Positions 6,827 through 61,509 of a DNA stretch of 64,000 nucleotides are shown in pieces. The position numbers and the translations under genes were made by a program. Source of the stretch: a virus; IMG/VR virus record IMGVR_UViG_3300037502_003029, positions 1,052-65,051 of that record. One strand, 5' to 3'. A model generated the notes under the pieces. The model was given only the letters and a program-made list of their open reading frames with translations. It was not told where the DNA came from and made no database searches. How positions within the stretch are numbered: the stretch's first letter is position 1; every line of letters starts with the position of its first letter.

Positions 6827-8365
6827 TTAATATGTTACAGATGGTAACAATAATAAACACAAGTTTACGTCTTTGATTCTTGCTCCAAAAGTATCAGCAG
6901 CTACTAATTCATAACTTCTTCGCTTATGTTGAGCAGAGAATCCACCTTTACCGGATTTACCGTTGATAGGTCCAATTGGAGACCACAAACCGCAAATATA
7001 AGTAAATGCTTCTGCATCTTTTTTCTTTAACAATTCTACGTTACCGTGAGAACCTAAACCGTAATCCATTACAAAATACATGTAAGATGTTAATGGAAGT
7101 TTAGTATCAGGGTGAACAATACCACCATTTAATTCTCTATTATCAAGAATTGGTAAATGTTCAAATCGTAAAGAACCAAAAGGTAATAAATCTACTTCTA
7201 AGAAGGTAGGATTAAGTACTTTATAACCAGGACTGTTAGAACCAGGATATGCTTCACCAGATTTAACAAATTTATCCCAAGGAACTTGTACATTAAGCAT
7301 GTTATACAATTCACGAATAGAATCATGTGCTTGCATCATACCCGCTCTACCAGTTTTAACAACTATATTAGCGTTTTCTGGAGATATAGTGTCCCAACCA
7401 ACTTCTTGCATAAAATCTCTAAGAGCATCAATAGAGAAGTTACCTAAAGGATAAGTGACGATATTAGCATCTTCCATAAATTCCATGATCCCTGGACCAA
7501 TCCTTCTATGGTATCCTGAAGTCTTATCTATAATATTTTTACCAGCAGCCCTACCATACCAAATCATCAATTCTTTTTCCCATTTGGATTCTACTAAGAA
7601 TTCAGTTTCAACCCAAGATATAAGTTGTCTAGGTATTTGTTTAATCTCTAAACCCTTATCATTAACAGGTGTAAGAACTAAGTTGAGATCATGAGCTTTA
7701 TTAGTTACTTCTACAGATTTACCCCAATCGGATAACCAAGTTTTAAATCTAATATAAGAGTTATTTCCGGTAACTTGAAATGAACCATAACCTTCAGATC
7801 CTTCACTATAAGCAGCACCTACTTTAATCCATTTAAGATTTGGTTCTAACAAATCAGGATCAAAATAAGCGTTTGGATCCATTGTAACAACTTGACCAGT
7901 ATAAATATAATCCAAACCATCTTTAACAGGTAAGTATTGAATTATAATTTGCTGATCCCACGCTATTTCAGGAGCAATAATATCACCAGGTACAAAATTA
8001 GGATTATCTAATTTTACTTGTAACTCAGTAAAGTTGTGACCGGGGTATTTAACACCAGGCATCAAATTCTCTTTAGCTAAAGTTTCAATTTTACCTGAAC
8101 CTTTAAGTGACCATTCTACTTCATCCGCATCTACCGAGCGCTCTCTTCCTTGACCAATCAAAGAATCCCATAAAGTAGCTTTTTTACCACTAAGAGCTGG
8201 TCTAGCTGTAGCAGCATACTGCATAATCTTATCTGTAAGATCTGCAGCTTTTTTTGAATGAGGATGATTAACGAGTAAAACGTTTTCTGAGAAGTAATTA
8301 CCATAAGGTACTTCTTTAGCGGCTTCCTCGTATATCTCCCATTTAGTTGGTTTTAATCTTGCCAT
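6827..8365 (-). CDS. Putative major capsid protein
   Basis: 512 aa ORF directly following a scaffold-like acidic coiled-coil gene in a terminase-portal-scaffold-capsid order; the call is positional only. Confidence 0.4.
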   Translation of the reverse strand: MARLKPTKWEIYEEAAKEVPYGNYFSENVLLVNHPHSKKAADLTDKIMQYAATARPALSGKKATLWDSLIGQGRERSVDADEVEWSLKGSGKIETLAKENLMPGVKYPGHNFTELQVKLDNPNFVPGDIIAPEIAWDQQIIIQYLPVKDGLDYIYTGQVVTMDPNAYFDPDLLEPNLKWIKVGAAYSEGSEGYGSFQVTGNNSYIRFKTWLSDWGKSVEVTNKAHDLNLVLTPVNDKGLEIKQIPRQLISWVETEFLVESKWEKELMIWYGRAAGKNIIDKTSGYHRRIGPGIMEFMEDANIVTYPLGNFSIDALRDFMQEVGWDTISPENANIVVKTGRAGMMQAHDSIRELYNMLNVQVPWDKFVKSGEAYPGSNSPGYKVLNPTFLEVDLLPFGSLRFEHLPILDNRELNGGIVHPDTKLPLTSYMYFVMDYGLGSHGNVELLKKKDAEAFTYICGLWSPIGPINGKSGKGGFSAQHKRRSYELVAADTFGARIKDVNLCLLLLPSVTY

Positions 8366-28375: not shown

Positions 28376-28389
28376 AAAAATAACAAAAG

Positions 28390-30054
28390 ATGTTTAACAG
28401 CAAACAAACTCAACTAATTTCAAAAGATGAAACTAAACAAAAAACATCTGCTTTTGTTAATGCTGGTTTAAAAAAATCAGCAGAAACAACTTCAGGTAAT
28501 GGTGCTTTAAAATATAGCACTACTGGTAATGATTTTGTAGATCAATTTGGTAAACTTGGTTCATATAAATCACCAAGAAGTTTTGAAGATATATCTCGTG
28601 ATATGTCTACATTATGGGCTCAAAACGCCTTACTTACTGTATGTTTTGTATTTTTTATAAGAATGATAACTCGTGTAGTTCAGTTCTTTGATAATACTAA
28701 AACATCAACTGTACAACGTGGAGCAGGATTAAAACATGAAGGTATTTTTAGAATGATATGGATTCATATACATCATAAAGATACCTTTTGGAAAAACATA
28801 TCATTATGGATTTCTATAGGTAGCTGGAAAGATATTATAACCATGCTCTCTTATGATCTTCAATATAATGGATGGAAAGATAGAAAATTAGATTGGGATA
28901 GTTTTGGTAAACTAATTTTAGCAGGATTAGAAAATCCTAATACTGTTAATTTAGTAAAAAAATATTTACCACAAATAAAATCTAACTCACAATGTACAAC
29001 ATTAGAAGCGCAAGCTGATAATATAATTGCAAAGTGGATATGTTCTTTATTATTTGGTAGTAAAGAAACTCCATCTAGTTATAAAAAATATAGAAAACTT
29101 AAAGCTTCAGGTACAGCGCATCAATGGCAGCAATTAATATCTCAACGTAAGCATAATCTTATTGATTTTAATACTGTTCACGGTAGAGCACTATCTCAAT
29201 TAGTATCTAGTAAATATTTGAAAAATCAAGGTTTAGAAGCTAAATATCAGAAGTGGATAGAATCTAAACCTATAGCTAAATTTACTGGATATGTACATGA
29301 ATTGTTTCACAAACTACCTCAAACAAAATATCAAATAGATACTTTAAATGCTCAATTTAATGGATTAGTAGAAACAGCAAAAAAAAATGCTACAACTGCT
29401 ACATCTATGATTGTAGTTAGAGATACATCTTATTCTATGAGAAGTTTTGCAACTGGTACTAATATGGCATGTTATAACGTTGCAAAAGCTCTTGCTTTGT
29501 TTTTTAGTGAAATGCTACCTAATGGTGCATTTGCTAATTCATGGATTGAATTTAATTCAAGTGCAAAAATGCGTACATGGAAAGGATCTACTCCATATGA
29601 AAAATGGACAAATGATACATCCAGTTATATTGGTAGTACAAACTTTCAATCAGTAATAAAACTTTTTTGTAATATTAAAGAGCAAGGAATCTCTGAATCA
29701 GAATTTCCAACAGGTATTATCTGTATAAGTGATAGTGAATTTAATCCTGCAGGTTTAAATAAGACTAATGTACAAACCGCCTTATCTACTTTAAGAAAAG
29801 AAGGTTTTTCTGAAGAATATGTTTCTAATTTTAAAATAGTTCTTTGGAATTTACAATCTAAAGCATATGGAGGAGCAGGAAATAAATTTGAAACCTATGG
29901 TAATGTACCTAATGTTTATTACTTTAGTGGTTTTGATGGTTCTATTGTAGCATTTCTCACTGGAGTAGAAGGTAAAACTTTTACACCAAGCACTGCTGAA
30001 GAATTATTTTTAGCAGCAATGGATCAAGAGATTTTGAAAAAGATAGTAGTATAA
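28390..30054 (+). CDS. vWA/MIDAS-domain protein with Ro60/Rsr-like architecture (N-terminal helical ~330 aa, C-terminal vWA)
   Basis: MIDAS IVVRDTSYSM (DxSxS) at about aa 340 of 554; the size and domain order match TROVE+vWA Ro60 orthologues. The TROVE assignment itself is inferred and not verified. Confidence 0.4.
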   Translation: MFNSKQTQLISKDETKQKTSAFVNAGLKKSAETTSGNGALKYSTTGNDFVDQFGKLGSYKSPRSFEDISRDMSTLWAQNALLTVCFVFFIRMITRVVQFFDNTKTSTVQRGAGLKHEGIFRMIWIHIHHKDTFWKNISLWISIGSWKDIITMLSYDLQYNGWKDRKLDWDSFGKLILAGLENPNTVNLVKKYLPQIKSNSQCTTLEAQADNIIAKWICSLLFGSKETPSSYKKYRKLKASGTAHQWQQLISQRKHNLIDFNTVHGRALSQLVSSKYLKNQGLEAKYQKWIESKPIAKFTGYVHELFHKLPQTKYQIDTLNAQFNGLVETAKKNATTATSMIVVRDTSYSMRSFATGTNMACYNVAKALALFFSEMLPNGAFANSWIEFNSSAKMRTWKGSTPYEKWTNDTSSYIGSTNFQSVIKLFCNIKEQGISESEFPTGIICISDSEFNPAGLNKTNVQTALSTLRKEGFSEEYVSNFKIVLWNLQSKAYGGAGNKFETYGNVPNVYYFSGFDGSIVAFLTGVEGKTFTPSTAEELFLAAMDQEILKKIVV

Positions 30055-30355
30055 ATCAAAACGAAGTAACAGAAAGAATTGGTGTATATAGCACATCTGT
30101 TATTTTTTTACATGGGGGATAATAGGCAATCGACTAATAATAAAAAATATACAATCAGCAGTGAGAATGGTAGTAGTCTCACTATAATAACTTATACCAA
30201 ACATTAAATGGCAATTTATTTAACAAATTGACTGAAGGTGCTAAAGTAGTATCTTTGGTTTCAAGTTTTAAACCACAAGTAGCAGTTGCTGCTTGATCTT
30301 GAGCAAACAAAGGTTTTTTATAATTTCTCTATTTTAGTATTAATATAAATAGAGT

Positions 30356-30480
30356 GGTGGATGCTTAACCGTACTGGTTAGCCCTTTTTATTCTTGTAGG
30401 TAGTAAAAGAACCTTCATTAAGCTGTATAAATTGTATATCGTATATTATTAACACACGGGTTCGAGTCCCGTATCCTCCA
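30356..30480 (+). ncRNA. tRNA-like/Y-RNA-like element
   Basis: Canonical T-arm ACGGG-TTCGAGT-CCCGT at 30456-30472 and acceptor 3' strand ATCCTCC+A. The only complementary 5' strand is GGTGGAT, 111 nt upstream. An internal hairpin CTTTT...AAAAG is present. Confidence 0.35.
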
Positions 30481-30505
30481 CAAATAAGCAAATTATAGTT
30501 TTTAT

Positions 30506-31610: not shown

Positions 31611-32393
31611 ATGAAAAAATATTTTGTAATTTTATTATTTAGTTTTATCTTTGTGGCCTGTACTTCAGTAGATTCAGGACATAAAGGTGTAGAAGTATCA
31701 TGGGGTGGTAAGACCAACATGAACAAAATTTATGATGAAGGTCTGCATTCGGGATTGCACTGGATACTTGATGATATGATAGAATATGATGTAAGAGAAA
31801 GAACTCTAACCAAAAAATTTGAGTTTAACGATAAAAATAATATGAAAACTGGTGTAGAATTATCAGTTGATTATTCTTTACAAGCAAATGCTGTTAATAC
31901 TATTCATAGTAAAATAGGTAAAGACCAAATTGAAGTTAAAATTTTAACTACTATTAGTTCAGCAGCTAAACAAGTTATTCCTCAATATTCTGCAACAGAA
32001 CTCAATTTAAATAAACGAGAAGAAGCTGAAGATAAATTTTTGGAAATAGTAAAAAAAGAATTTCCAGATTTTTATGTAAATGCTTCAAGAGTTCGTATTA
32101 CTGATGTAGATATTCCTAATCAAATTGCTGAAGCTGCAGAAGCTAATGCTAAACAGCAAGAGCTTAATAAGTTATCTCAATCTAAAGTTGAACAAGCTAA
32201 AAATGAGTTTAATGCTGCTGAATATAATGCTAAAACAAAAGCTATTCTATCTAAACCAGAAATGCTTGAACTACAACGTGTAGAAAATGAGCGTTTAATG
32301 TGGGAAGGATTTAAAACCCATGGTAAATCACCATATGGTGAACATAACGTATTCGGAGGAAATCTTTTATTATCAAAACCTTTAAATAATTAA
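31611..32393 (+). CDS. SPFH/Band-7 (prohibitin/HflKC-like) lipoprotein
   Basis: Lipobox FVACTS; SGHKGVEVSWGG resembles the SPFH N-terminal motif; long C-terminal coiled coil. Confidence 0.4.
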   Translation: MKKYFVILLFSFIFVACTSVDSGHKGVEVSWGGKTNMNKIYDEGLHSGLHWILDDMIEYDVRERTLTKKFEFNDKNNMKTGVELSVDYSLQANAVNTIHSKIGKDQIEVKILTTISSAAKQVIPQYSATELNLNKREEAEDKFLEIVKKEFPDFYVNASRVRITDVDIPNQIAEAAEANAKQQELNKLSQSKVEQAKNEFNAAEYNAKTKAILSKPEMLELQRVENERLMWEGFKTHGKSPYGEHNVFGGNLLLSKPLNN

Positions 32394-32394
32394 A

Positions 32395-32688
32395 ATGCTT
32401 TATTTTCATTCCAAACATGCCCGAAACAGAGTAACTGTTTGCGGTGATTTTTGTGAAGATGGTCTTTGTTTAACTGCAGCTAGATGTAGTGATAAAGATA
32501 ATTTTTGTAGAAAAGAAGGTAGAATACGTGCAGAAGGACGCTTTAACAAAAAGCGTACTTGCGTAACAGTACCGGTTGAAGAAGCTAATTTAAAAACTTT
32601 TGTAGATTTAGCTTCAAAATTCGCTGATTTTGTATCAGCAAACATTAAATTTAAAGACCTTTTAAAACAGGGCGTAAAGCCATTTTAA
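32395..32688 (+). CDS. Hypothetical Cys-rich protein
   Basis: ORF track. Confidence 0.35.
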   Translation: MLYFHSKHARNRVTVCGDFCEDGLCLTAARCSDKDNFCRKEGRIRAEGRFNKKRTCVTVPVEEANLKTFVDLASKFADFVSANIKFKDLLKQGVKPF

Positions 32689-32711
32689 AGGTTAAGTAAA
32701 ATTAAGAATTA

Positions 32712-32780
32712 GGAAATCTTACAGCAAATTAATAACAATTTTGTTCGACCATATTTAAATTAAATTTTATATAGATTTCC
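32712..32780 (+). ncRNA. Structured RNA unit A (terminal helix GGAAATCT/AGATTTCC; ACAGCAAATTAATA box)
   Basis: Perfect 8-bp inverted repeat closing a 69-nt unit; conserved box directly 3' of the 5' strand. Confidence 0.5.
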
Positions 32781-32785
32781 GATAA

Positions 32786-32850
32786 GAACAGTTACAGCAA
32801 ATTAATACAAGCACCAAACTTTTAATTTGACACGCTAATTAATACTGTTC
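32786..32850 (+). ncRNA. Structured RNA unit B (GAACAGT/ACTGTTC; ACAGCAAATTAATA box)
   Basis: As unit A; GATAAG linker on both sides. Confidence 0.5.
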
Positions 32851-32855
32851 TGATA

Positions 32856-32964
32856 AGTACACACACAGCAAATATTAAAAAAAACGGATCAACAACATTA
32901 ATTTCTATTTAATACTTGTAAATCCTAGTTGGTTCAAATCCAGCAGGTTGAAATAAAGTGTACT
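32856..32964 (+). ncRNA. Structured RNA unit C (AGTACAC/GTGTACT) containing anticodon-like hairpin ATTTA-ATACTTG-TAAAT and T-arm GTTGG-TTCAAAT-CCAGC
   Basis: Seen in sequence. Confidence 0.5.
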
Positions 32965-32968
32965 GATA

Positions 32969-33104
32969 AAGATAGTAACAGCAACTTTTATGTTAAAGAA
33001 GATCTGTGGGTCACAAGTTCAAATCTTGTATTCTTATGTAAATAAGAATTAGCTCAGTTGGTAGAGCAATGGAATAAAACAAAATACTATCTTGTTTTTT
33101 TTTT
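32969..33104 (+). ncRNA. Structured RNA unit D (AAGATAGTA/TACTATCTT, then T10) with circularly permuted tRNA module: T-arm + acceptor 3' strand ATTCTTA, 6-nt spacer, acceptor 5' strand TAAGAAT + canonical D-arm AGCTCAGTTGGTAGAGC
   Basis: Seen in sequence; both acceptor strands are perfectly complementary but in reversed gene order. Confidence 0.5.
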
Positions 33105-33122
33105 AATTTTAAAACTTAAAAA

Positions 33123-33620
33123 ATGAATCTTAAAACAGACGATTTTTTAGTAAAATTATATAACGAAGTATATGACAAATTACCTACAAATGTATGTAGT
33201 TTTTTTTGGGGAACATTTTATATTATGTTAAATTTTTTAACAACTATATTTGGAATTATCCAATTAAGTGTTTCATATTATTATTATAATAAAGATAAAT
33301 CAAGTGCAATTGATGCTATAATTGGAATAACTTATTTAGAAAGATTTTTACAAGTCCTATTTATTAGTAATATTATTCAAAATCTTAAAATTACTACAAA
33401 TTATATACTTTTAGATTATATAATATTTATATCGTTAATAGTAGTTACTATTATTTTATTTTATTTTTTAACTAATTTTATAGGGTTTATTAGTGATATT
33501 ATAAGTAATTATTCAAATAGTCCGAGTAAACAAAAAAATAATAAACAACCTGGTTTAATAAAAACTTATTTTAAAAGTATAAAAGAAAAGTATTGTGAAT
33601 TAATCACATATACTGATTAA
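33123..33620 (+). CDS. Hypothetical multi-pass membrane protein
   Basis: Three or four hydrophobic helices. Confidence 0.45.
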   Translation: MNLKTDDFLVKLYNEVYDKLPTNVCSFFWGTFYIMLNFLTTIFGIIQLSVSYYYYNKDKSSAIDAIIGITYLERFLQVLFISNIIQNLKITTNYILLDYIIFISLIVVTIILFYFLTNFIGFISDIISNYSNSPSKQKNNKQPGLIKTYFKSIKEKYCELITYTD

Positions 33621-33628
33621 TATTATAT

Positions 33629-33744
33629 GGGGGCAGATGGAAATTTTAATCAGTATTGATTAATAACAGCAAATTATAATTAAATAAATAGCACAAATTG
33701 TCACTTTGTAGTTCATTACATCCTGAAAGTAATTGCCCCCGCCA
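33629..33744 (+). ncRNA. Structured RNA unit U1 (GGGGGCA ... TGCCCCC-G-CCA: acceptor-like stem with encoded CCA; internal hairpin TTAATCA/TGATTAA; ACAGCAAATTATAA box)
   Basis: Seen in sequence. Confidence 0.45.
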
Positions 33745-33746
33745 CA

Positions 33747-33820
33747 AGATATCATACAGCAAATTAAAAATATTTAAACACAAAAATAGGGATTTTGCAA
33801 GTTTTTATAAAATGATATCT
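33747..33820 (+). ncRNA. Structured RNA unit U2 (AGATATCAT/ATGATATCT; ACAGCAAATTAAAAA box)
   Basis: Perfect 9-bp terminal helix. Confidence 0.5.
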
Positions 33821-33828
33821 GTTTAATA

Positions 33829-33926
33829 AATTCTCATACAGCAAGTATATATATAAAAAAATCTTTTTCTAAACAAAAGCGAAGCCTGGATGGTGGGTAT
33901 TAAGGGTTCGATTCCCTACGAGAATT
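33829..33926 (+). ncRNA. Structured RNA unit U3 (AATTCTCAT/ACGAGAATT, 8 of 9 bp) containing T-arm-like AGGG-TTCGATT-CCCT
   Basis: Seen in sequence. Confidence 0.45.
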
Positions 33927-33931
33927 GATAA

Positions 33932-33992
33932 GAGTACATACAGCAAATTTAAAAACACCCTGATTTATAATTTGGTTATGTAAAATGTACTC
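33932..33992 (+). ncRNA. Structured RNA unit U4 (GAGTACAT/ATGTACTC; ACAGCAAATTTAAAAA box)
   Basis: Perfect 8-bp terminal helix. Confidence 0.5.
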
Positions 33993-33997
33993 TGATA

Positions 33998-34070
33998 AGA
34001 AGCGAAACAGCAAATTAATTATAGGACTAGACTTTTAATCTAACATTCTAAATAATCGCTTCTGTTTTTT
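33998..34070 (+). ncRNA. Structured RNA unit U5 (AGAAGCGA/TCGCTTCT, then T6) with anticodon-like loop CTTTTAA on stem TAGA/TCTA
   Basis: Seen in sequence. Confidence 0.5.
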
Positions 34071-34166
34071 AACTTTAAAAATAAAATAACATGTTTGATA
34101 TTATTATTGCTGGTTTAATTGTATATGCGTTTATAGGTATAATAATATATTTAGATAAATATACAG

Positions 34167-34535
34167 ATGAGCAAAATCAGTCTAGAAAGATTTAAACAAA
34201 GTATTAAATCAGGTAAAATACCTATTAAAAAAAGATACGGCGGTAAGCTAAAATGGTTCGGAGAACTTGCAGTTTTTGGTGATTATGTATTGGATTCAGT
34301 AACCGCAGAATTTGATTATAAAGGAGTTGATAAAAATAAAATTAAAAACTTTTTAAATTCAAATGAATTTATGCGATTTTGTACTCCAAAATTATATCCC
34401 AAAAACTGCACTTATTATAGCGGTCCATTTTTAGCTGATGCTGCCGAAGCTTATATAGGTAGATTATTTTTAAACAGTGGCGAAAAAGCTGTAACAGAAT
34501 ATATATTACACAATTTAAGAAAATATATAGAATAA
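34167..34535 (+). CDS. Hypothetical protein
   Basis: ORF track. Confidence 0.4.
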   Translation: MSKISLERFKQSIKSGKIPIKKRYGGKLKWFGELAVFGDYVLDSVTAEFDYKGVDKNKIKNFLNSNEFMRFCTPKLYPKNCTYYSGPFLADAAEAYIGRLFLNSGEKAVTEYILHNLRKYIE

Positions 34536-34588: not shown

Positions 34589-34915
34589 ATGAAGCATAAA
34601 GTATTAAAAAAACATTTAAAAGAAGGAAATATATTACCAATATATATAAATTGGCAAGAACAACAAGGTTTTAGAGGTAATGCAGTATTATTAAAACGAT
34701 TGGTAAGTAGAGAACCACCAGAAGAAGATAAAATTTATTTATTTAAAGAAATAGGTGATATAATAAAAGATCGCTTAAAAGATAAAATAAATATACTTTA
34801 TTCTTATCAGTGGTGGAGAATTGAATTTATTGATGGTCCAAATTCAGGATTTGTAACTGCTGTAAAAATAGCATATTACAAAAGAACTTTTTGGCAAACA
34901 GAAGAAGAAGAATAA
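34589..34915 (+). CDS. Hypothetical protein
   Basis: ORF track. Confidence 0.4.
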   Translation: MKHKVLKKHLKEGNILPIYINWQEQQGFRGNAVLLKRLVSREPPEEDKIYLFKEIGDIIKDRLKDKINILYSYQWWRIEFIDGPNSGFVTAVKIAYYKRTFWQTEEEE

Positions 34916-34917
34916 CT

Positions 34918-36063
34918 ATGACAATAAGATTTTTTGATTTAGAAATATATCCAAACTTATTTGTAGCTGTATTTTATAATCCTTATGATAAAGAATATAC
35001 AACTTTTACATTATGGGAGCATAATGGATTAGCACAAATAAATGAATTACCGCAATTAAAAAAATATCTTAAAGATAATTCAGATATTTATTTTTGTGGA
35101 TATAATTCTTTAGGATATGATATGCAAATTCTTACAGAAATTATAAAAAAGAATTTGTGTACTACAGACCAGATTAAGCAATTTAATGATTACTTAATAT
35201 CACAGGAATGGCCTATATATAGAGAAAAAGATTTATGTGGTAAAACACTAGATTTAATGCTTATCAATAATTATGGACCAAAAAGCGCTAAAAGTACATC
35301 ATTAAAAAAACTTGAGTTTAATCTTAGAAAAAAGAAAATACAAGATTTACCATATCATTTTAATGATTTAATAACAAAAGAATCTGAAGTAAATGATATT
35401 ATAAAATATTGTAAGTATGACGTAGAAGTTACTGTAGATGTATTTAGATTGAGTAAAGAACTTATTAATTTAAGATTAGAATTTGAACCTATAATTGGAG
35501 AATCTGTATTAAATTCACCTGAACCTGATTTAGCTAAAAAGTTTGTTTATAAAGAATTAGCTAATTATATGGATATTGATGTTAATACTTTTAAGAAACT
35601 AAGAACTTATCATGAAGAAATAAAAGTTAAAGATTTAATATTACCTTTTATTAACTTTACAAAAGAACATTATAAAGAAGTATTAGATTATTATAACGGA
35701 CTAGTTTTAAATGCTACTAATAAATCAGTATTAGGAAATCAAAAAGTAATAAACTTAAAAAATGCAGTAAACAAAACTATTAATTATGATGGTTTAGAAA
35801 CTGTATACGGTAGTGGAGGTATTCACGCTTCAGTAGAAGCTGGTGTATATTCAGAGTCTGAAGAATATATGATTACTACTGCTGATTTTACATCTTATTA
35901 TCCTCATTTACAGTTTATACATGATTGTATAGCAGGACATATACCATCTGAATTATATTCTAAATTAGTTAAATATCTTTTTGCAGAAAGAAAAAAACAT
36001 GCTAAAGGAACAAGCTTAAACTATGTATATAAAATTATGATTAATTTACTTTACGGTGGTTAA
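34918..36063 (+). CDS. Family-B DNA polymerase, exon 1 (3'-5' exonuclease domain through polymerase motif B); alternative start at 34891
   Basis: Exo I FDLEIYPN, Exo II GYNSLGYDMQIL (YGYNxxxFDxxxL), Exo III YCKYDVEV. The ORF ends exactly at motif B, KIMINLLYGG (Kx3NSxYG). Confidence 0.55.
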   Translation: MTIRFFDLEIYPNLFVAVFYNPYDKEYTTFTLWEHNGLAQINELPQLKKYLKDNSDIYFCGYNSLGYDMQILTEIIKKNLCTTDQIKQFNDYLISQEWPIYREKDLCGKTLDLMLINNYGPKSAKSTSLKKLEFNLRKKKIQDLPYHFNDLITKESEVNDIIKYCKYDVEVTVDVFRLSKELINLRLEFEPIIGESVLNSPEPDLAKKFVYKELANYMDIDVNTFKKLRTYHEEIKVKDLILPFINFTKEHYKEVLDYYNGLVLNATNKSVLGNQKVINLKNAVNKTINYDGLETVYGSGGIHASVEAGVYSESEEYMITTADFTSYYPHLQFIHDCIAGHIPSELYSKLVKYLFAERKKHAKGTSLNYVYKIMINLLYGG

Positions 36064-37035
36064 TATTATGTTAATTTCTTATTATTATTATTATATTTAT
36101 AATTATTTTTTATGCATATTTGTATAAAAATATATAAACGAGAAAATAATATAATAGATAGATACAGCCGCTTATTAGAGCAATCTAATATGAAAAACTC
36201 CTTAAATTCGGTGGACGCTCCAGAACAGAGTAATACCGAGCCAAGCATTAATTTAAATGATTAATGAAGGTGTAACGACTAGAGAAATAATTAAAACAAT
36301 TTAAAATCACAAATTAGTGTATTATGCAAAATAGAGAAAAATCATTGTTAATTGCTATGTGCATCGGAGACGGTCACATAGTAAAAGATCCTAATTCCAA
36401 ATCATGTTCGCTTATAATAAGACATTCTACAAAACAAATAGAATGGATAGAAAAAAAACATGAATTGATAGTTTCTATATTAGGAGGGTATGTTCCTAAA
36501 TTAACTAAATTTAATAATTCAGGTTATCCTGGAATTAGATTTAGTAAAAGTTCAAAATACTTTAGGGTATTAAGAAAATGGATATATCCAAATAATAAAA
36601 AAAATATATCAAGATATATATTAAATAAACTTGATGAAGAAGGTATTGCTATATGGTATATGGATGACGGTGGATTGAGTGCTAAAAGAAGAAATGGGAA
36701 AATACATGCTTATAATCTGTTTTTGAATACTCATCTTACTATTGAAGAAAATCAAATAATAATCAATTATTTTAAAGAAGTTTGGGATATTAATTTTCAG
36801 CAAGTAAAAAATAAAGGTCATTATAGATTAAGAATGGGTACTAAAGAAATTAGAAAATTTATACCATTAATTTCAAAATACATCATTCCTTCTATGCAAT
36901 ATAAGATAACAATGAATTTTAATTGAAATTATTTTTCCACGAAAAAGGAGCATCCTACAGGGATGAAGATATAGTCTGGACTGCATATATAGTTCATAAA
37001 TAAAAATGCAGAACTACAAGATAAAGAGCTTGTAG
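36064..37035 (+). other. Intervening sequence in the DNA polymerase gene (candidate group I intron carrying a homing-endonuclease ORF); the 3' boundary lies somewhere in 37036..37113
   Basis: The polymerase frame stops immediately after motif B. A LAGLIDADG ORF sits in another frame, and the polymerase reading frame reopens at 37036. Confidence 0.45.
36324..36926 (+). CDS. LAGLIDADG-family homing endonuclease
   Basis: Two LAGLIDADG-like motifs, LIAMCIGDGHI and IAIWYMDDGGL. Confidence 0.55.
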   Translation: MQNREKSLLIAMCIGDGHIVKDPNSKSCSLIIRHSTKQIEWIEKKHELIVSILGGYVPKLTKFNNSGYPGIRFSKSSKYFRVLRKWIYPNNKKNISRYILNKLDEEGIAIWYMDDGGLSAKRRNGKIHAYNLFLNTHLTIEENQIIINYFKEVWDINFQQVKNKGHYRLRMGTKEIRKFIPLISKYIIPSMQYKITMNFN

Positions 37036-59146: not shown

Positions 59147-60205
59147 ATGAATCTTAATCAACTTAAAAAAAGTGGATGGATAATTCATGAATGCATAGTA
59201 GGTTCACATTTATATAACACTAACAAAGAAGGTAGTGATGTTGATGTAAAAGGTGTTTATATACAACCTACAAAAGAAATATTAAAAGGTAATTATATTG
59301 AACAAATAAGCGATGATAAACAAGATCATACTTATTATGAAATTGGTAGATTTATAGAGTTATTATGTAAAGCTAACCCTAATATGTTAGATATTATAGG
59401 AAGCGATCAGATACTTTATACTACAAATTTATGGAAACAATATTTTTCTAATCCTCAAGAATATATAACAAAAAAAATAAAACATACTTTTAATGGATAT
59501 GCACATAGTCAGATTCAAAAAGCTAAAGGTATGAATAAAAAAACTAATTGGGAAAAATCCAGAATGGAACGTAAAACACCATTAGATTTTTGTTATATAC
59601 TTTTAAATAATGAAAGTTCTATTAAAATTAAAGATTTTTTTGAAATACCAGAAAACGAATTTAATAAATTTAGACATTGGGGGTTAGCGTCTATAAATAA
59701 TTTTCCTGATTGTTATGCTATGTATTATTTTAAAGAAGGAAACGCAGGAATATGTAATAAAGAGTCTAATGATATTTGTTTAACATCTATACCTAAAAAC
59801 TATAATAGAAAGTATATATTACGTTTTGATCGGAATGCTTATTCTACTCATTGTAAAGATTATAGAGAATATCAAGAATGGTTAGAAAAACGTAATCCTC
59901 TTAGATATCAAGATAATGCTAAAGTAGATGATGAATATGATACAAAAAATATGATGCATTGTGTTAGATTATTGCTTACATGTAAAGATTTACTTTTAGG
60001 TAAAGGTTTACTATTAAAGCGACCTGAAAGAGATTTATTATTAAGTATTAGAAATGGTGAAGTTTCATATAATAGCATCATAGAGTTATCTGAATCATTA
60101 AAATTAGAAGTTGAAAGTTTATATGAAACTTCTAAATTACCAAGAGAAGTAAATATTAATATGGTTAAAGAGTTATTATTAAAAATCAGATTAAATCATT
60201 TATGA
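59147..60205 (+). CDS. Pol-beta superfamily nucleotidyltransferase domain protein
   Basis: VGSHLYNTNKEGSDVDVKGV matches hG[GS]x(9-13)DxD. Confidence 0.45.
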   Translation: MNLNQLKKSGWIIHECIVGSHLYNTNKEGSDVDVKGVYIQPTKEILKGNYIEQISDDKQDHTYYEIGRFIELLCKANPNMLDIIGSDQILYTTNLWKQYFSNPQEYITKKIKHTFNGYAHSQIQKAKGMNKKTNWEKSRMERKTPLDFCYILLNNESSIKIKDFFEIPENEFNKFRHWGLASINNFPDCYAMYYFKEGNAGICNKESNDICLTSIPKNYNRKYILRFDRNAYSTHCKDYREYQEWLEKRNPLRYQDNAKVDDEYDTKNMMHCVRLLLTCKDLLLGKGLLLKRPERDLLLSIRNGEVSYNSIIELSESLKLEVESLYETSKLPREVNINMVKELLLKIRLNHL

Positions 60206-61509
60206 ATTTACAAATAGCGAAAGATAGCGAAAATTATGCAGGAATAGTTTGTAAAGTATCTAATATAATTCCTATAGAAGGTGCTGATAAAATACAACTT
60301 GCAATAGTAGAAGGTAATAGTGTAGTAGTTAGTAAATCTACTAAAGTAGGAGATTTAGGTCTTTTCTTTTGTTCTGGAACGCAGTTATCTGAAGATTATT
60401 GTAAACTTAACAATTTATATGATGATCCTAATAAAAATTTAGATACTTCTGAAAAAGGTTATATATCTTCAAGACAAAGAAGAGTAAAAGCTATAAAACT
60501 CAGAGGAGTTATATCTAATGGTATGTTTATGCCTATTCATTCTTTGGATTATATATCTGAAGATGTATTTAATTTAAAAGAAGGTCAGTCATTTACCTCT
60601 ATAAATGGGTTAGAAGTATGTAGAAAGTTTATAGTTGTAGAACAAAAAGGTCCTGCTAATACACTAGCAAAACCTAAAAGTCCTAAGTTTAATAGATTAA
60701 TTGATAACCAATTTATTCTTCATAATAATACATCTAATTTAAGACATAATATTAAAAATATCGAACCAGAGGATATTATAGGAATTCATTACAAAAAGCA
60801 TGGTACAAGTGCTGTTTTTGCTAATATTCCTACGTTACGAAAATTAAGTTGGTGGGAAAGATTTTTAATGAAAATAGGTATTAAAATTAACACAACTGTA
60901 TATGATATAATATACTCTTCTAGAACTGTAATTAAAAATAAAAATATTAATTTAGAAAGCGGAGAAGGGTATTATGGAGAAGATATATGGAAAGTTGTTA
61001 AAAATGAGATATCTCATTTAATACCTAAAAATTGGACTTTATATGGTGAGATTATAGGATTTATGCCTTCAGGTCAATCTATACAAAAAAAGTATGATTA
61101 TGGTTGCAAATTAGGAGAACATAAATTTTATGTATATAAAATATCAGTAAATAATCCTGACGGTAAAGTAATTTATCTAACAGATTTACAAATAAAAGAA
61201 TTTTGTGATTCTGTTGGTTTATTATATTCTGATACTTTTATGTACTATGGTAAAGCTAAAGATCTATTTCCTATTCGTAAAAATGGTAATATAAAAACTT
61301 GGAGACAAAACTTTTTAGAGTTTTTAGAAAAAACTTATAACGATAAAGATTGTTATATGTGTATTAATAAAGTACCAGAAGAAGGAATAGTGTTGCGTAA
61401 AGAGTCTTTATTTAGTTATGAAGCTTATAAATTAAAAAGTAAAGGGTTTATATTACAAGAATCTAAACAACAAGAAGATAATGAGTACAACATCGAAGAT
61501 GAAGCTTAG
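60202..61509 (+). CDS. ATP-dependent RNA ligase (Rnl2/Rnl5-like nucleotidyltransferase domain preceded by an N-terminal domain)
   Basis: Motif I KKHGTS (KxHGT[NS]) at about aa 199; Rnl-like downstream motifs. Confidence 0.5.
   Translation: MNLQIAKDSENYAGIVCKVSNIIPIEGADKIQLAIVEGNSVVVSKSTKVGDLGLFFCSGTQLSEDYCKLNNLYDDPNKNLDTSEKGYISSRQRRVKAIKLRGVISNGMFMPIHSLDYISEDVFNLKEGQSFTSINGLEVCRKFIVVEQKGPANTLAKPKSPKFNRLIDNQFILHNNTSNLRHNIKNIEPEDIIGIHYKKHGTSAVFANIPTLRKLSWWERFLMKIGIKINTTVYDIIYSSRTVIKNKNINLESGEGYYGEDIWKVVKNEISHLIPKNWTLYGEIIGFMPSGQSIQKKYDYGCKLGEHKFYVYKISVNNPDGKVIYLTDLQIKEFCDSVGLLYSDTFMYYGKAKDLFPIRKNGNIKTWRQNFLEFLEKTYNDKDCYMCINKVPEEGIVLRKESLFSYEAYKLKSKGFILQESKQQEDNEYNIEDEA

Follow-up and report, generated by a model that had tools for sequence, protein, structure and literature searches.

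A probable permuted tRNA mimic without an anticodon loop in a Y-RNA-like unit of a crAss-like phage, near a gene for a protein with a predicted Ro60-like fold

Ro60 together with its Y RNAs is a conserved RNA quality-control particle, in which a terminal helix of the RNA binds the Ro ring while a variable distal module tethers an effector, which is PNPase in the case of Deinococcus radiodurans Yrn1. One bacterial branch, YrlA (Rfam RF02553), carries a tRNA mimic in the order T arm, closed acceptor-like hairpin and D arm, and YrlA-type RNAs next to canonical Ro60 genes are already known in phages (PMC4201824, PMC12135203). YrlA is modified by TruB and DusA, and the YrlA of M. smegmatis, which has a 7-bp acceptor stem, is cut by RNase P and receives CCA, whereas Salmonella YrlA and D. 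radiodurans Yrn1 are not cleaved (PMC4201824). How the tRNA-like module of bacterial Y RNAs is used is not known. A comparable gene order is found in the circularly permuted tRNA genes of the red alga Cyanidioschyzon merolae and a few archaea, as well as in two-piece (permuted) tmRNA genes, where the T arm and acceptor 3' strand are encoded upstream of the acceptor 5' strand. The Class I RNAs of Dictyostelium (Rfam RF01414) have a short terminal helix and an adjacent conserved motif, have had no known function since 2004, and were reported as unique to dictyostelids (PMC7919456).

Here we examined a module of this kind in a 64,000-nt stretch of a crAss-like phage (IMG/VR record IMGVR_UViG_3300037502_003029, positions 1,052 to 65,051; hereafter the window), which encodes a Crass_capsid protein. 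A sequence-only reading had described a T arm, two complementary acceptor strands with the 3' half preceding the 5' half, and a D arm, and each of these elements is present at the position given for it, so that the observation holds. The parts of the unit, termed unit D, are as follows:

32969 to 33093, plus strand: unit D as a whole, a terminal helix, the ACAGCAA motif, a permuted tRNA-like module and an A-rich 3' strand
32969 to 32977, plus strand: 5' strand of the 9-bp terminal helix (AAGAUAGUA), pairing with 33085 to 33093
32978 to 32984, plus strand: scaffold motif ACAGCAA, directly 3' of the helix strand
33003 to 33012, plus strand: 3' strand of an anticodon-stem analogue (UCUGU, 33003 to 33007), then a variable-loop analogue GGGUC (33008 to 33012)
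33013 to 33029, plus strand: T arm ACAAG-UUCAAAU-CUUGU
33030 to 33049, plus strand: closed acceptor hairpin, with 3' strand AUUCUUA (33030 to 33036), spacer UGUAAA (33037 to 33042) and 5' strand UAAGAAU (33043 to 33049)
33050 to 33068, plus strand: U8 and A9 (33050 to 33051), D arm GCUC-AGUUGGUA-GAGC (33052 to 33067) and A26
33069 to 33084, plus strand: 5' strand of the anticodon-stem analogue (AUGGA, 33069 to 33073), then the A-rich strand AUAAAACAAAA, which lies opposite the ACAGCAA motif
33085 to 33104, plus strand: 3' strand of the terminal helix (UACUAUCUU, 33085 to 33093), then G and a run of 10 U (33095 to 33104), the likely end of the array 1 transcript

In the DNA, AAGATAGTA pairs with TACTATCTT to form the terminal helix, and the D arm reads GCTC-AGTTGGTA-GAGC. 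Three points of the earlier description require correction or addition. The acceptor hairpin reads as 7 bp, but can extend to 8 bp capped by a GUAA tetraloop. The statement that no anticodon arm follows the D arm is not right, since A26 is followed by ATGGA, which pairs with TCTGT directly before a canonical variable loop, so that the terminal helix extends a 5-bp anticodon-stem analogue rather than occupying its place, and only the anticodon loop is absent. Finally, a second copy of TAAGAATTAG at 32703 to 32712 is real, but the proposal that it hints at duplication or recombination was rejected as a chance match, because two copies were found against 0.84 expected and 21 of 100 shuffles gave at least two.

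Folding of the unit, which had been suggested beforehand as a check on the arrangement, recovered the T, acceptor and D hairpins in the minimum free energy (MFE) structure (z = -2.1). This fold also pairs ACAG of the motif with CUGU, but that pairing was rejected, since the partner is not conserved in orthologues, whereas the alternative pairing with AUGGA covaries. The Rfam tRNA model, likewise put forward in advance as a test, and ARAGORN called no tRNA at the locus, and a blastn search of 32000 to 34000 against GenBank phages found no match. By contrast, a leave-one-out covariance model (CM) made only from other contigs hits 33001 to 33079 at 75.5 bits (E 1e-21) with all 21 pairs standard, while the next hit in the window scores 18 bits. 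Loss of the complementarity in related phage genomes had been named as grounds for abandoning the observation, and was not seen: of 22 CM hits, 18 lie inside ACAGCAA units from 13 viral contigs, and 89.7% of cells are paired against 58.5% in shuffles and 36-46% when the partners are slid, although the covariation counts were made on a model-fitted alignment that includes the seeds. All seven acceptor pairs change on both sides in 10-12 of the 22 sequences and this helix is 92% paired, with most units scoring 7/7 pairs, each with a different sequence. The T helix is 96% paired and covaries, the D helix is 100% paired, and the anticodon-stem analogue is only 71% paired, but all five of its pairs show changes on both sides. 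U8, G10, A14, G15, A21, C25, C48, G53, T54, A58 and C61 are invariant in 18/18 units, T55 and C56 are found in 17/18, and G18/G19 are mostly conserved. Furthermore, after in-silico un-permutation with a synthetic anticodon loop ARAGORN calls a tRNA in 16 of 18 units, including unit D, but in none of 4 tRNA-tRNA junction controls.

Unit D is one of nine units with a terminal stem and ACAGCAA that form two arrays in the window. The other units, and the gene of the presumed protein partner, are:

32712 to 32964, plus strand: units A (32712 to 32780), B (32785 to 32851) and C (32856 to 32964) of array 1, joined by (C)UGAUAAG linkers; unit C carries a T-arm-like hairpin (GUUGG-UUCAAAU-CCAGC)
33629 to 34063, plus strand: array 2, units E (33629 to 33740), F (33747 to 33820), G (33829 to 33926, with a T arm), H (33931 to 33993) and I (33998 to 34063)
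28390 to 30054, plus strand: gene for the 554-aa DUF2828/DUF7788 protein, predicted to consist of a helical repeat region followed by a vWA domain
28388 to 28449, plus strand: scaffold-like unit spanning the start codon of the DUF2828 gene (AG-AUG-UUU-A-ACAGCAA, an A-rich stretch, then AACAUCU), a candidate autoregulatory site

The window holds 27 copies of ACAGCAA against 6.7 expected, nine of which are clustered on the plus strand at 32721 to 34013. Unit I is 76% identical to unit B, and the arrangement at the end of unit D recurs after unit I at 34057 to 34071, with similar downstream sequence (repeat D5). The loop of unit F matches the loop of the first unit in Leptolyngbya phage Lbo-JY46, but the terminal helix differs. 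A sigma-70 promoter and terminator scan was uninformative, since its promoter count was no higher than in shuffles and it has no model for Bacteroidota promoters, and the U-run after unit D was not flagged because the enclosed loop is large. A weak RNase III-like Pfam hit of the ORF at 34167 to 34535 (E 0.002) was not confirmed by PHROGs. To find relatives, a first scan with the pattern CTGATAAN{7,10}ACAGCAA was too unspecific, nearly all of its 120 loci being chance hits, and a second scan requiring two motifs still returned many non-array loci, only about 30 of 119 holding stem-closed arrays. A terminal helix of 6-9 bp is present in 155 units from 25 loci, with a median length of 73 nt; ACAGCAA is exact in all 155 because it was the search term, but its flanks are conserved as (U/A)(U/A)ACAGCAAAU, and the tract before the 3' helix strand is generally A-rich (44-63% A against a 37% background). 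The arrays carry many different tRNA-like cargoes, including permuted modules with two D-arm flavours, normal-order tRNA-like units and T-arm-only units, and lie in tRNA/tmRNA-rich regions.

The DUF2828 protein matches Pfam DUF7788 and PHROG 850 ("RNA-binding protein"). Its AF2 model (pLDDT 83, pTM 0.85, with the N-terminal 30 residues below pLDDT 50) matches Ro60 and Rsr over its full length, the top Foldseek PDB hits being Ro60 (2i91, 1yvp; E 1e-6) and Rsr (2nvo). However, the TM-scores are modest (0.39-0.45), and phmmer and profile searches against PDB sequences returned nothing relevant, so that the similarity rests on the fold comparison. All arrays of at least three units with readable flanks lie next to a DUF2828 homologue, whereas none of 117 control loci has one. 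The scaffold is found beside DUF2828 genes in crAss-like phages and a cyanophage, and the same units accompany DUF2828 genes that are only about 25% identical in Bacillus phage Tsamsa, Fusobacterium phage phiKSUM and Enterococcus phage phiSHEF16. The Enterococcus phage also has two permuted tRNA-like modules (73.3 and 44 bits), which are conserved in 29 phage records. By contrast, GAP32 and Erwinia jumbo phages have DUF2828 genes with no ACAGCAA unit within 2.5 kb, and in the window the gene lies 2.9 kb upstream, separated from the arrays by a tmRNA-like gene (30115 to 30483), tRNA-Gln and several ORFs (five of 53 aa or more), while in most relatives it is adjacent. The 5' end of the DUF2828 ORF itself forms a scaffold unit around the start codon in most homologues, the exact motif plus a CAUCU partner occurring in 7 of 18 homologous loci and a degenerate motif with the partner retained in another 6, which is what an autoregulating RNA-binding protein would show. 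The window also encodes an RlaP and RNA ligase pair at 59147 to 61509, and in GAP32 and an Erwinia phage the DUF2828 gene lies beside an RNA ligase gene.

We consider the most likely reading, at a probability of roughly 0.65, to be that unit D is a small non-coding RNA, a Y-RNA-like partner of a Ro60-like protein carrying a YrlA-style tRNA mimic. In this view the internal loop formed by ACAGCAA and the A-rich tract, together with the terminal helix, is the binding site of the DUF2828 protein, and from it rises the anticodon-stem analogue bearing a tRNA body that is opened at the anticodon loop and closed at the acceptor end. The RNA should fold into the L shape, with the elbow and the acceptor-T minihelix exposed. 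The array would be transcribed as one precursor that ends at the U-run after unit D, the precursor cut at the CUGAUAAG linkers, and each RNA bound by the Ro60-like protein, so that the variable module would decide which partner the particle meets. For unit D this would be a protein that recognises tRNA shape, candidates being modification enzymes, RNase P, the CCA-adding enzyme, the RlaP/RNA-ligase tRNA repair pair of the phage or host tRNA-targeting nucleases. The structure, its conservation and its genomic association are shown, whereas transcription, processing, protein binding and the identity of the partner are inferred, as no expression, processing or binding data exist. Of the two interpretations offered by the sequence-only reading, a YrlA-like tRNA mimic is supported and a permuted tRNA gene is not, so that its interpretation is partly supported, and its remark that either would be unusual in a phage needs qualifying, given the phage YrlA-type RNAs already described.

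Other explanations appear less likely. The RNA could be processed further at the closed acceptor end, with RNase P cutting 5' of U33043, trimming of the 3' side and addition of CCA, giving a nicked, possibly aminoacylatable molecule held together by the scaffold, as reported for M. smegmatis YrlA. This would extend the main reading rather than replace it, and is consistent with the 7-bp acceptor stem of most units, with an acceptor loop so variable that it looks like a dispensable intervening segment (4-8 nt in most units, a conserved 22-26 nt insert in the loci numbered L211, L215 and L216, and about 90 nt in L146), and with RlaP, an enzyme that adds nucleotides to damaged tRNA 3' ends (preprint 10.64898/2025.12.29.696909). 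We regard it as unlikely, since in unit D the loop can close to a stable GUAA tetraloop on an 8-bp stem, which leaves no single-stranded leader for RNase P, no CCA is encoded, and not all Y RNAs are cleaved; aminoacylation identity elements were not tested, but position 3:70 is A:U, so it does not carry the alanine identity pair. It is similarly improbable that the RNAs act on their own as decoys or sponges for host tRNA-binding enzymes or tRNA-targeting defence nucleases, the scaffold being only a processing or stability signal. The diversity of tRNA-like cargoes, the tRNA/tmRNA-rich surroundings and the investment of the phage in tRNA repair would fit this, but most units, including A, B, F, H and I, have no tRNA-like part yet keep the scaffold, there is no anticodon loop to bait anticodon nucleases, and a mere processing signal would not explain why the scaffold follows such divergent DUF2828 genes and reappears over the start codon of the gene itself.

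A genuine circularly permuted tRNA gene, whose transcript would be circularised and re-opened to give a decoding tRNA, is already disfavoured and very improbable, although the 3' half does precede the 5' half, the unit ends pair with each other and the un-permuted sequence is called a tRNA. The anticodon-stem strands are joined to the termini by 25 nt and 11 nt that hold the family-wide ACAGCAA and A-rich elements, so that joining the ends would give about 54 nt in place of a 7-nt loop with an anticodon. Inspection shows no bulge-helix-bulge (3-nt/4-bp/3-nt) geometry, bacteria lack the splicing endonuclease (established knowledge that was not tested here), and the acceptor ends are covalently closed by a 4-6 nt loop with no CCA, in several members by tight GNRA tetraloops. 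Non-functional debris, such as the junction of two decayed tandem tRNA genes or a recombination scar, is for practical purposes refuted by the compensatory changes. Phage tRNA clusters are common in these regions and the CM does pick up real tRNA-tRNA junctions at 31-40 bits, but these show unpaired "acceptor" positions, whereas unit D and its relatives keep a perfectly paired acceptor through complete sequence turnover in 13 contigs and in Enterococcus phages, and always lie inside a stem and ACAGCAA unit.

The wider family appears undescribed in the literature searched. The locus shows the tRNA-like module of bacterial Y RNAs built on a different scaffold, next to a different and only structurally Ro60-like protein, in phages ranging from crAss-like viruses to therapeutic-candidate Enterococcus phages such as EFDG1, where it is unannotated in 28 of 29 records. 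This convergence, or deep homology, argues that displaying a tRNA shape on a Ro-type particle is functionally important during infection, the likely setting being tRNA damage, tRNA repair or defence evasion, and it provides many natural variants for experiments. More tentatively, the stem and ACAGCAA RNAs and the DUF2828 proteins may form a widespread, undescribed phage ribonucleoprotein system in which one protein-binding scaffold displays interchangeable cargo modules (permuted tRNA mimics, normal-order tRNA mimics, T-arm-only modules and others), and the Class I RNAs may be the eukaryotic counterpart of this scaffold. That would imply that they too are Y-RNA-like partners of a Ro60/DUF2828-type protein, which offers a concrete and testable lead for these unexplained RNAs; whether dictyostelids have a DUF2828 protein was not tested.

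Compared with two-piece tmRNA genes, unit D shares the order of the T arm and acceptor strands, and tmRNA genes lie next to these arrays (in the window and at loci L002 and L176), but unit D has a full D arm, A:U rather than G:U at position 3:70, no tag reading frame and no pseudoknots, and ARAGORN reports no tmRNA. With permuted tRNA genes it shares a break point in the anticodon-loop region, but the acceptor ends are closed by a loop instead of being separated by a processed linker, the context is that of a bacterial virus, and the same terminal scaffold is shared by eight neighbouring units, among them units that are not tRNA-like. With Yrn1 and metazoan Y RNAs it shares the principle of a terminal helix and a variable distal module, but the binding motif differs, as does the module orientation (Yrn1), and there is no evidence here for PNPase recruitment.

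The scaffold strongly resembles Class I RNA, in which the conserved motif (CC)UUACAGCAA lies directly 3' of the 5' strand, an A-rich tract precedes the 3' strand and the interior is variable, and the termini are alike, the 5' end being AAG and the 3' end CUGU in Class I against CUGAU at the phage linkers (PMC7919456). Class I RNAs have a terminal helix of about 6 bp, an adjacent CCUUACAGCAA motif and AAG/CUGU termini, for which the phage units show a helix of 6-9 bp, (U/A)(U/A)ACAGCAA and CUGAU|AAG linkers, with GUAACAGCAA in unit D; as the mature ends were not mapped, these features allow no call either way. No phage unit reaches the Rfam gathering score of 41.5 bits, since units A to C score only 15-20 bits, the best short phage unit scores 39.3 bits (locus L001), and none of 14 loci had a hit at this score. 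Furthermore, Class I genes are dispersed in dictyostelid genomes, have the DUSE promoter about 60 nt upstream, are 42-65 nt long and have the RRM protein Rnp1A as their known binder, whereas the phage units are tandem within arrays and unit D is 125 nt long with a tRNA-like cargo.

YrlA is the best Rfam family hit for unit D (28.2 bits, E 5.8e-4 in a 601-nt search) and for seven orthologous units (29-39 bits), where the model aligns at positions 23-86 in relatives, but these scores are far below the gathering score of 69 bits. As in YrlA, the ends pair into a helix, which in YrlA is protein-binding, the distal tRNA mimic has the same order of T arm, closed acceptor-like hairpin and D arm, and YrlA is often encoded alongside further Y-like RNAs. 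A further trait of YrlA is that it is encoded near a Ro60/Rsr (TROVE) gene and bound by its product; here a gene for a protein with a predicted Ro60-like fold lies nearby, but it does not match TROVE and binding was not assayed, so that the locus neither gains nor loses a claim to this trait. The conserved GNCGAA(N0-1)G motif of the Ro-binding helix (PMC4201824) is absent and is replaced by ACAGCAA plus an A-rich strand, the units come in processed-looking arrays of 4-5, and a 5-bp anticodon-stem analogue and a canonical variable loop are retained. Thus, relative to the YrlA-type RNAs known in phages, what differs here is the scaffold, the protein partner and the arrayed layout.

Inspection of positions 32400-33700 of the window confirmed every element listed in the sequence-only reading, so that its observation of a rotated tRNA-like arrangement held. 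The components of this unit (unit D) are arranged as follows, all on the plus strand:

32969-32977, AAGATAGTA, 5' strand of the terminal helix
33003-33007, TCTGT, paired with ATGGA at 33069-33073
33008-33012, GGGTC, canonical variable loop
33013-33029, ACAAG-TTCAAAT-CTTGT, T arm
33030-33036, ATTCTTA, first acceptor strand
33037-33042, TGTAAA, spacer between the acceptor strands
33043-33049, TAAGAAT, second acceptor strand
33050-33051, T8/A9
33052-33067, GCTC-AGTTGGTA-GAGC, D arm
33069-33073, ATGGA, preceded by A26
33085-33093, TACTATCTT, 3' strand of the terminal helix
33094-33104, a G and ten T's following the unit

Two features had been missed, since it was claimed that no anticodon arm follows the D arm. 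Instead, the D arm is followed by A26 and ATGGA, which pairs with TCTGT, and the latter lies directly before the canonical variable loop, so that the unit contains every part of a tRNA except the anticodon loop. The structure prediction that had been asked for recovered the T, acceptor and D hairpins in the MFE fold (z = -2.1), and the acceptor hairpin can also be drawn as 8 bp with a GUAA tetraloop. By contrast, ARAGORN and the Rfam tRNA model, the latter also put forward beforehand as a check, call the three ordinary tRNAs of the window but nothing at this locus. The second TAAGAATTAG at 32703, which had been taken to hint at duplication or recombination, is a chance match, since two copies were found against 0.84 expected and 21 of 100 shuffles gave at least two.

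Unit D belongs to an array with a shared scaffold. The motif ACAGCAA occurs 27 times in the window against 6.7 expected, and nine copies are clustered on the plus strand, each of which lies just 3' of a 6-9 nt strand whose complement closes the unit. The units are joined by (C)TGATAAG linkers and form two arrays, each of which ends in a T-run followed by a small ORF:

32712-33093, plus strand, array 1, units A-D
33629-34063, plus strand, array 2, units E-I

An Rfam search in E-value mode gave two leads, namely YrlA, which hits 32989-33097 at 28.2 bits (E 5.8e-4; gathering score 69), and Dictyostelium Class I RNA, which hits units A, B and C at 15-20 bits. Other units carry only a T arm, as seen for unit C (32856-32964), unit G (33829-33926), and in the related viral loci collected for comparison (designated by L numbers) at L001 7057-7150 and in the L146 and L132 arrays. 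In the unit G type the T arm is preceded by a conserved CCUGGAUGG-like element and the terminal helix follows the T stem directly, as an acceptor stem would, which looks like a second, non-permuted tRNA-like or tmRNA-TLD-like design. Furthermore, some array units (L146 239-299; L215 866-939) contain a normal-order tRNA body with D arm, anticodon arm and T arm, which the Rfam tRNA model detects (52.6 bits over model positions 6-65, and 32.8 bits), while the scaffold helix takes the place of the acceptor stem. A larger conserved structured insert (aataatggccctaaggt...caaaggccc(c/t)aaggggtactgg) occurs inside units of two distant arrays, L146 (663-810) and L132 (array on the minus strand), and matches no Rfam family at the gathering score.

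The 554-aa ORF at 28390-30054 matches Pfam DUF7788 and PHROG 850 “RNA-binding protein”, and tblastn finds homologues annotated as DUF2828 proteins in 114 GenBank phages. The closest of these is Leptolyngbya phage Lbo-JY46 at 47% identity, which has five stem + ACAGCAA units immediately after the gene, scoring up to 39.3 bits with the Class I model, whose gathering score is 41.5. Five IMG/VR relatives show the same layout, and a two-motif pattern scan added more arrays, although only about 30 of the 119 loci returned hold true stem-closed arrays. All arrays of at least three units whose flanks are readable lie next to a DUF2828 homologue of 47-69% identity, whereas none of 117 control loci has one. 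The scaffold also sits beside DUF2828 genes that are only about 25% identical: Bacillus phage Tsamsa has two units between its tRNA cluster and the gene, Fusobacterium phage phiKSUM has one unit in the 5' leader of the gene, after a TTGACA-N17-TATAAT promoter, and Enterococcus phage phiSHEF16 (L246) has three units upstream of the gene (L246 1300-1800), each preceded by a conserved hairpin (GGTTTTGACATATGTCATAGTTCCAACC...GGAAC). However, GAP32 and an Erwinia jumbo phage have no unit within 2.5 kb, so the association is broad but not universal.

The loss of complementarity in related phage genomes, which the sequence-only reading had named as grounds for rejecting its observation, was not what the relatives showed. 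An anchor-based scan in which only the T arm and the D arm were fixed found modules whose intervening 7 + 7 nt are complementary yet differ in sequence in every contig. A covariance model of the module then found 22 hits with E below 1e-6, of which 18 lie inside ACAGCAA units from 13 contigs, while four are junctions between real tandem tRNA genes and serve as internal controls. On that alignment 89.7% of cells are paired, compared with 58.5% in shuffles and 36-46% when the partners were slid; the acceptor helix is 92% paired, the T helix 96%, the D helix 100% and the anticodon-stem analogue 71%, and all seven acceptor pairs change on both sides in 10-12 sequences. Since this alignment is fitted to the model and includes the seeds, a second model was built from six units of other contigs only, which hits 33001-33079 of the window at 75.5 bits (E 1e-21) with all 21 pairs standard, while the next hit in the window scores 18 bits. 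Across the 18 units the residues that build the tRNA core and elbow are conserved, such that U8, G10, A14, G15, A21, C25, C48, G53, T54, A58 and C61 are invariant in 18/18, T55 and C56 are 17/18, and G18/G19 are mostly conserved. When the halves were re-joined in silico with a synthetic anticodon loop and CCA, ARAGORN called a tRNA in 16 of 18 units, including unit D, and in none of the four junction controls.

Two D-arm flavours exist, UAGCUCAGUUGGUAGAGC and UCGUCUAGUGGUUAGGAC, which can co-occur in one array. In some permuted modules (L211 4687-4781; L215 562-657 and 711-805; L216 2249-2343) the acceptor loop holds a conserved 22-26 nt insert (ACAAAGTTAAATCTAGAAATCT), while in L146 (348-495) the insert is about 90 nt and looks structured, suggesting an excised or functional intervening segment. 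The Enterococcus phage units score 73.3 and 44 bits, and their sequence is present at 94-100% identity in 29 Enterococcus phage records, including that of EFDG1, and is unannotated in 28 of them. The hairpin-preceded units upstream of the DUF2828 gene are noted for phiSHEF16 and 28 other Enterococcus phage records, and the whole region is unannotated in GenBank records of therapeutic-candidate phages such as EFDG1.

An AlphaFold model of the 554-aa protein (pLDDT 83, pTM 0.85) best matches, over its whole length, Xenopus Ro60 (2i91, 1yvp; E 1e-6) and D. radiodurans Rsr (2nvo; E 4e-4), and its C-terminal part matches vWA domains. The TM-scores are modest (0.39-0.45), and sequence searches against the PDB found nothing, so that this is a predicted Ro60-like architecture rather than a demonstrated orthologue. 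A Ro60-like protein of phage Bas63 has been reported in a preprint to lie upstream of tRNA genes and to counter a defence system (PMC11482910); whether that protein belongs to DUF2828 was not examined. A hint that the scaffold is the binding site of the protein comes from the start of the DUF2828 ORF, the first 60 nt of which form a stem + ACAGCAA unit enclosing the start codon:

28388-28449, plus strand, AG-AUG-UUU-A-ACAGCAA, an A-rich stretch, then AACAUCU

The same is seen at this position in L002, L132, L155, L211, L216, L239 and others. Seven of 18 homologous loci have AAG-AUG-UUU-(G/A)-ACAGCAA together with a downstream (A/G)CAUCU partner, and six more have a degenerate motif but keep CAUCU, at distances of about 42-66 nt from the start codon, so the partner is conserved at a variable distance even where the motif has decayed. 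This pattern, which makes the unit a candidate autoregulatory site, fits autogenous translational control by an RNA-binding protein, although this is an inference; the N-terminal 30 residues are predicted to be disordered.

The window comes from a crAss-like phage, as shown by a Crassvirus major capsid gene at 6827-8365 on the minus strand. Further features of its context are:

30115-30483, plus strand, probable divergent tmRNA gene
34891-36063, DNA polymerase-like ORF (PHROG 1252)
36324-36926, plus strand, LAGLIDADG homing endonuclease ORF
59147-61509, plus strand, overlapping RlaP nucleotidyltransferase and PHA02142-type RNA ligase gene pair

The probable tmRNA gene lies directly after the DUF2828 gene, between it and the arrays, in an interval that also contains tRNA-Gln. 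The Rfam tmRNA model aligns full length at 23.4 bits (gathering score 47), the acceptor GGGGGAU/AUCCUCC has G3:U70, and the T arm is ACGGG-UUCGAGU-CCCGU, but both ARAGORN and the gathering-threshold scan missed it. Clear tmRNA genes lie next to the arrays in L002 (8806-9208) and L176. The RlaP and RNA ligase pair is a tRNA/RNA repair module, RlaP adding nucleotides to damaged tRNA 3' ends (preprint 10.64898/2025.12.29.696909). In GAP32 and the Erwinia phage the DUF2828 gene lies beside an RNA ligase gene, with the same ligase type lying directly upstream of the DUF2828 gene in GAP32 and one gene upstream in Erwinia phage pEa_SNUABM_47. The LAGLIDADG ORF lies just downstream of the polymerase-like ORF and may be an intron-borne or free-standing homing element. 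In a related viral contig (L005 1065-1249), a Hatchet ribozyme match above the Rfam gathering score (55.4 bits against 51) lies about 5 kb upstream of the DUF2828 gene.

Taken together, unit D is best read as a Y-RNA-like RNA, in which a terminal helix and the ACAGCAA/A-rich loop form a scaffold that continues into an anticodon-stem analogue carrying a full tRNA body with a closed acceptor end. The arrangement of the module and its conservation are observed in the sequences, whereas protein binding by the scaffold is inferred. The interpretation offered by the sequence-only reading is therefore supported in part, namely in its comparison with the YrlA mimic. Its alternative, a permuted tRNA gene, is not borne out in the functional sense, since there is no anticodon loop and no BHB junction, and the scaffold is shared with non-tRNA units. 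Debris from tandem tRNA genes is excluded by the compensatory changes.

The design is that of YrlA as described by Chen et al. (PMC4201824), in which TruB and DusA modify the mimic. Nevertheless, unit D is not a member of Rfam YrlA, because the score is far below threshold and the GNCGAA motif is absent. Known phage Y RNAs accompany canonical Ro60 and carry the CGAA motif (PMC4201824, PMC12135203), and literature searches on DUF2828, YrlA in phages, Y RNAs of bacteriophages, Ro60 in crAss phages and the motif itself found no description of the RNAs reported here. What is new is a variant of the known YrlA-type mimic on a different scaffold, while the wider family and a link to Class I RNAs are possible and would be newer still.

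As for the Class I RNAs, Kjellin et al. (PMC7919456) define them by an AAG start, a 6-bp terminal helix, the 11-nt motif CCUUACAGCAA next to the 5' strand and a CUGU end, and found none outside Dictyostelia. No phage unit reaches the Rfam threshold, the best score being 39.3 bits against 41.5, the mature ends of the phage RNAs are not known, and dictyostelids were not examined for a DUF2828 protein, so that the relation stays a lead. The resemblance, noted for the window (32712-34063), L001 (6923-7274) and the consensus of 155 phage units from 25 loci, is nonetheless striking: the consensus is CUGAU|AAG, then a helix, (U/A)(U/A)ACAGCAAAU, an A-rich tract, the closing helix, and CUGAUAAG, and at the level of the DNA sequence the phage scaffold resembles the Class I RNAs in an AAG start, a short terminal helix, UUACAGCAA, an A-rich tract and a CUG(A)U end.
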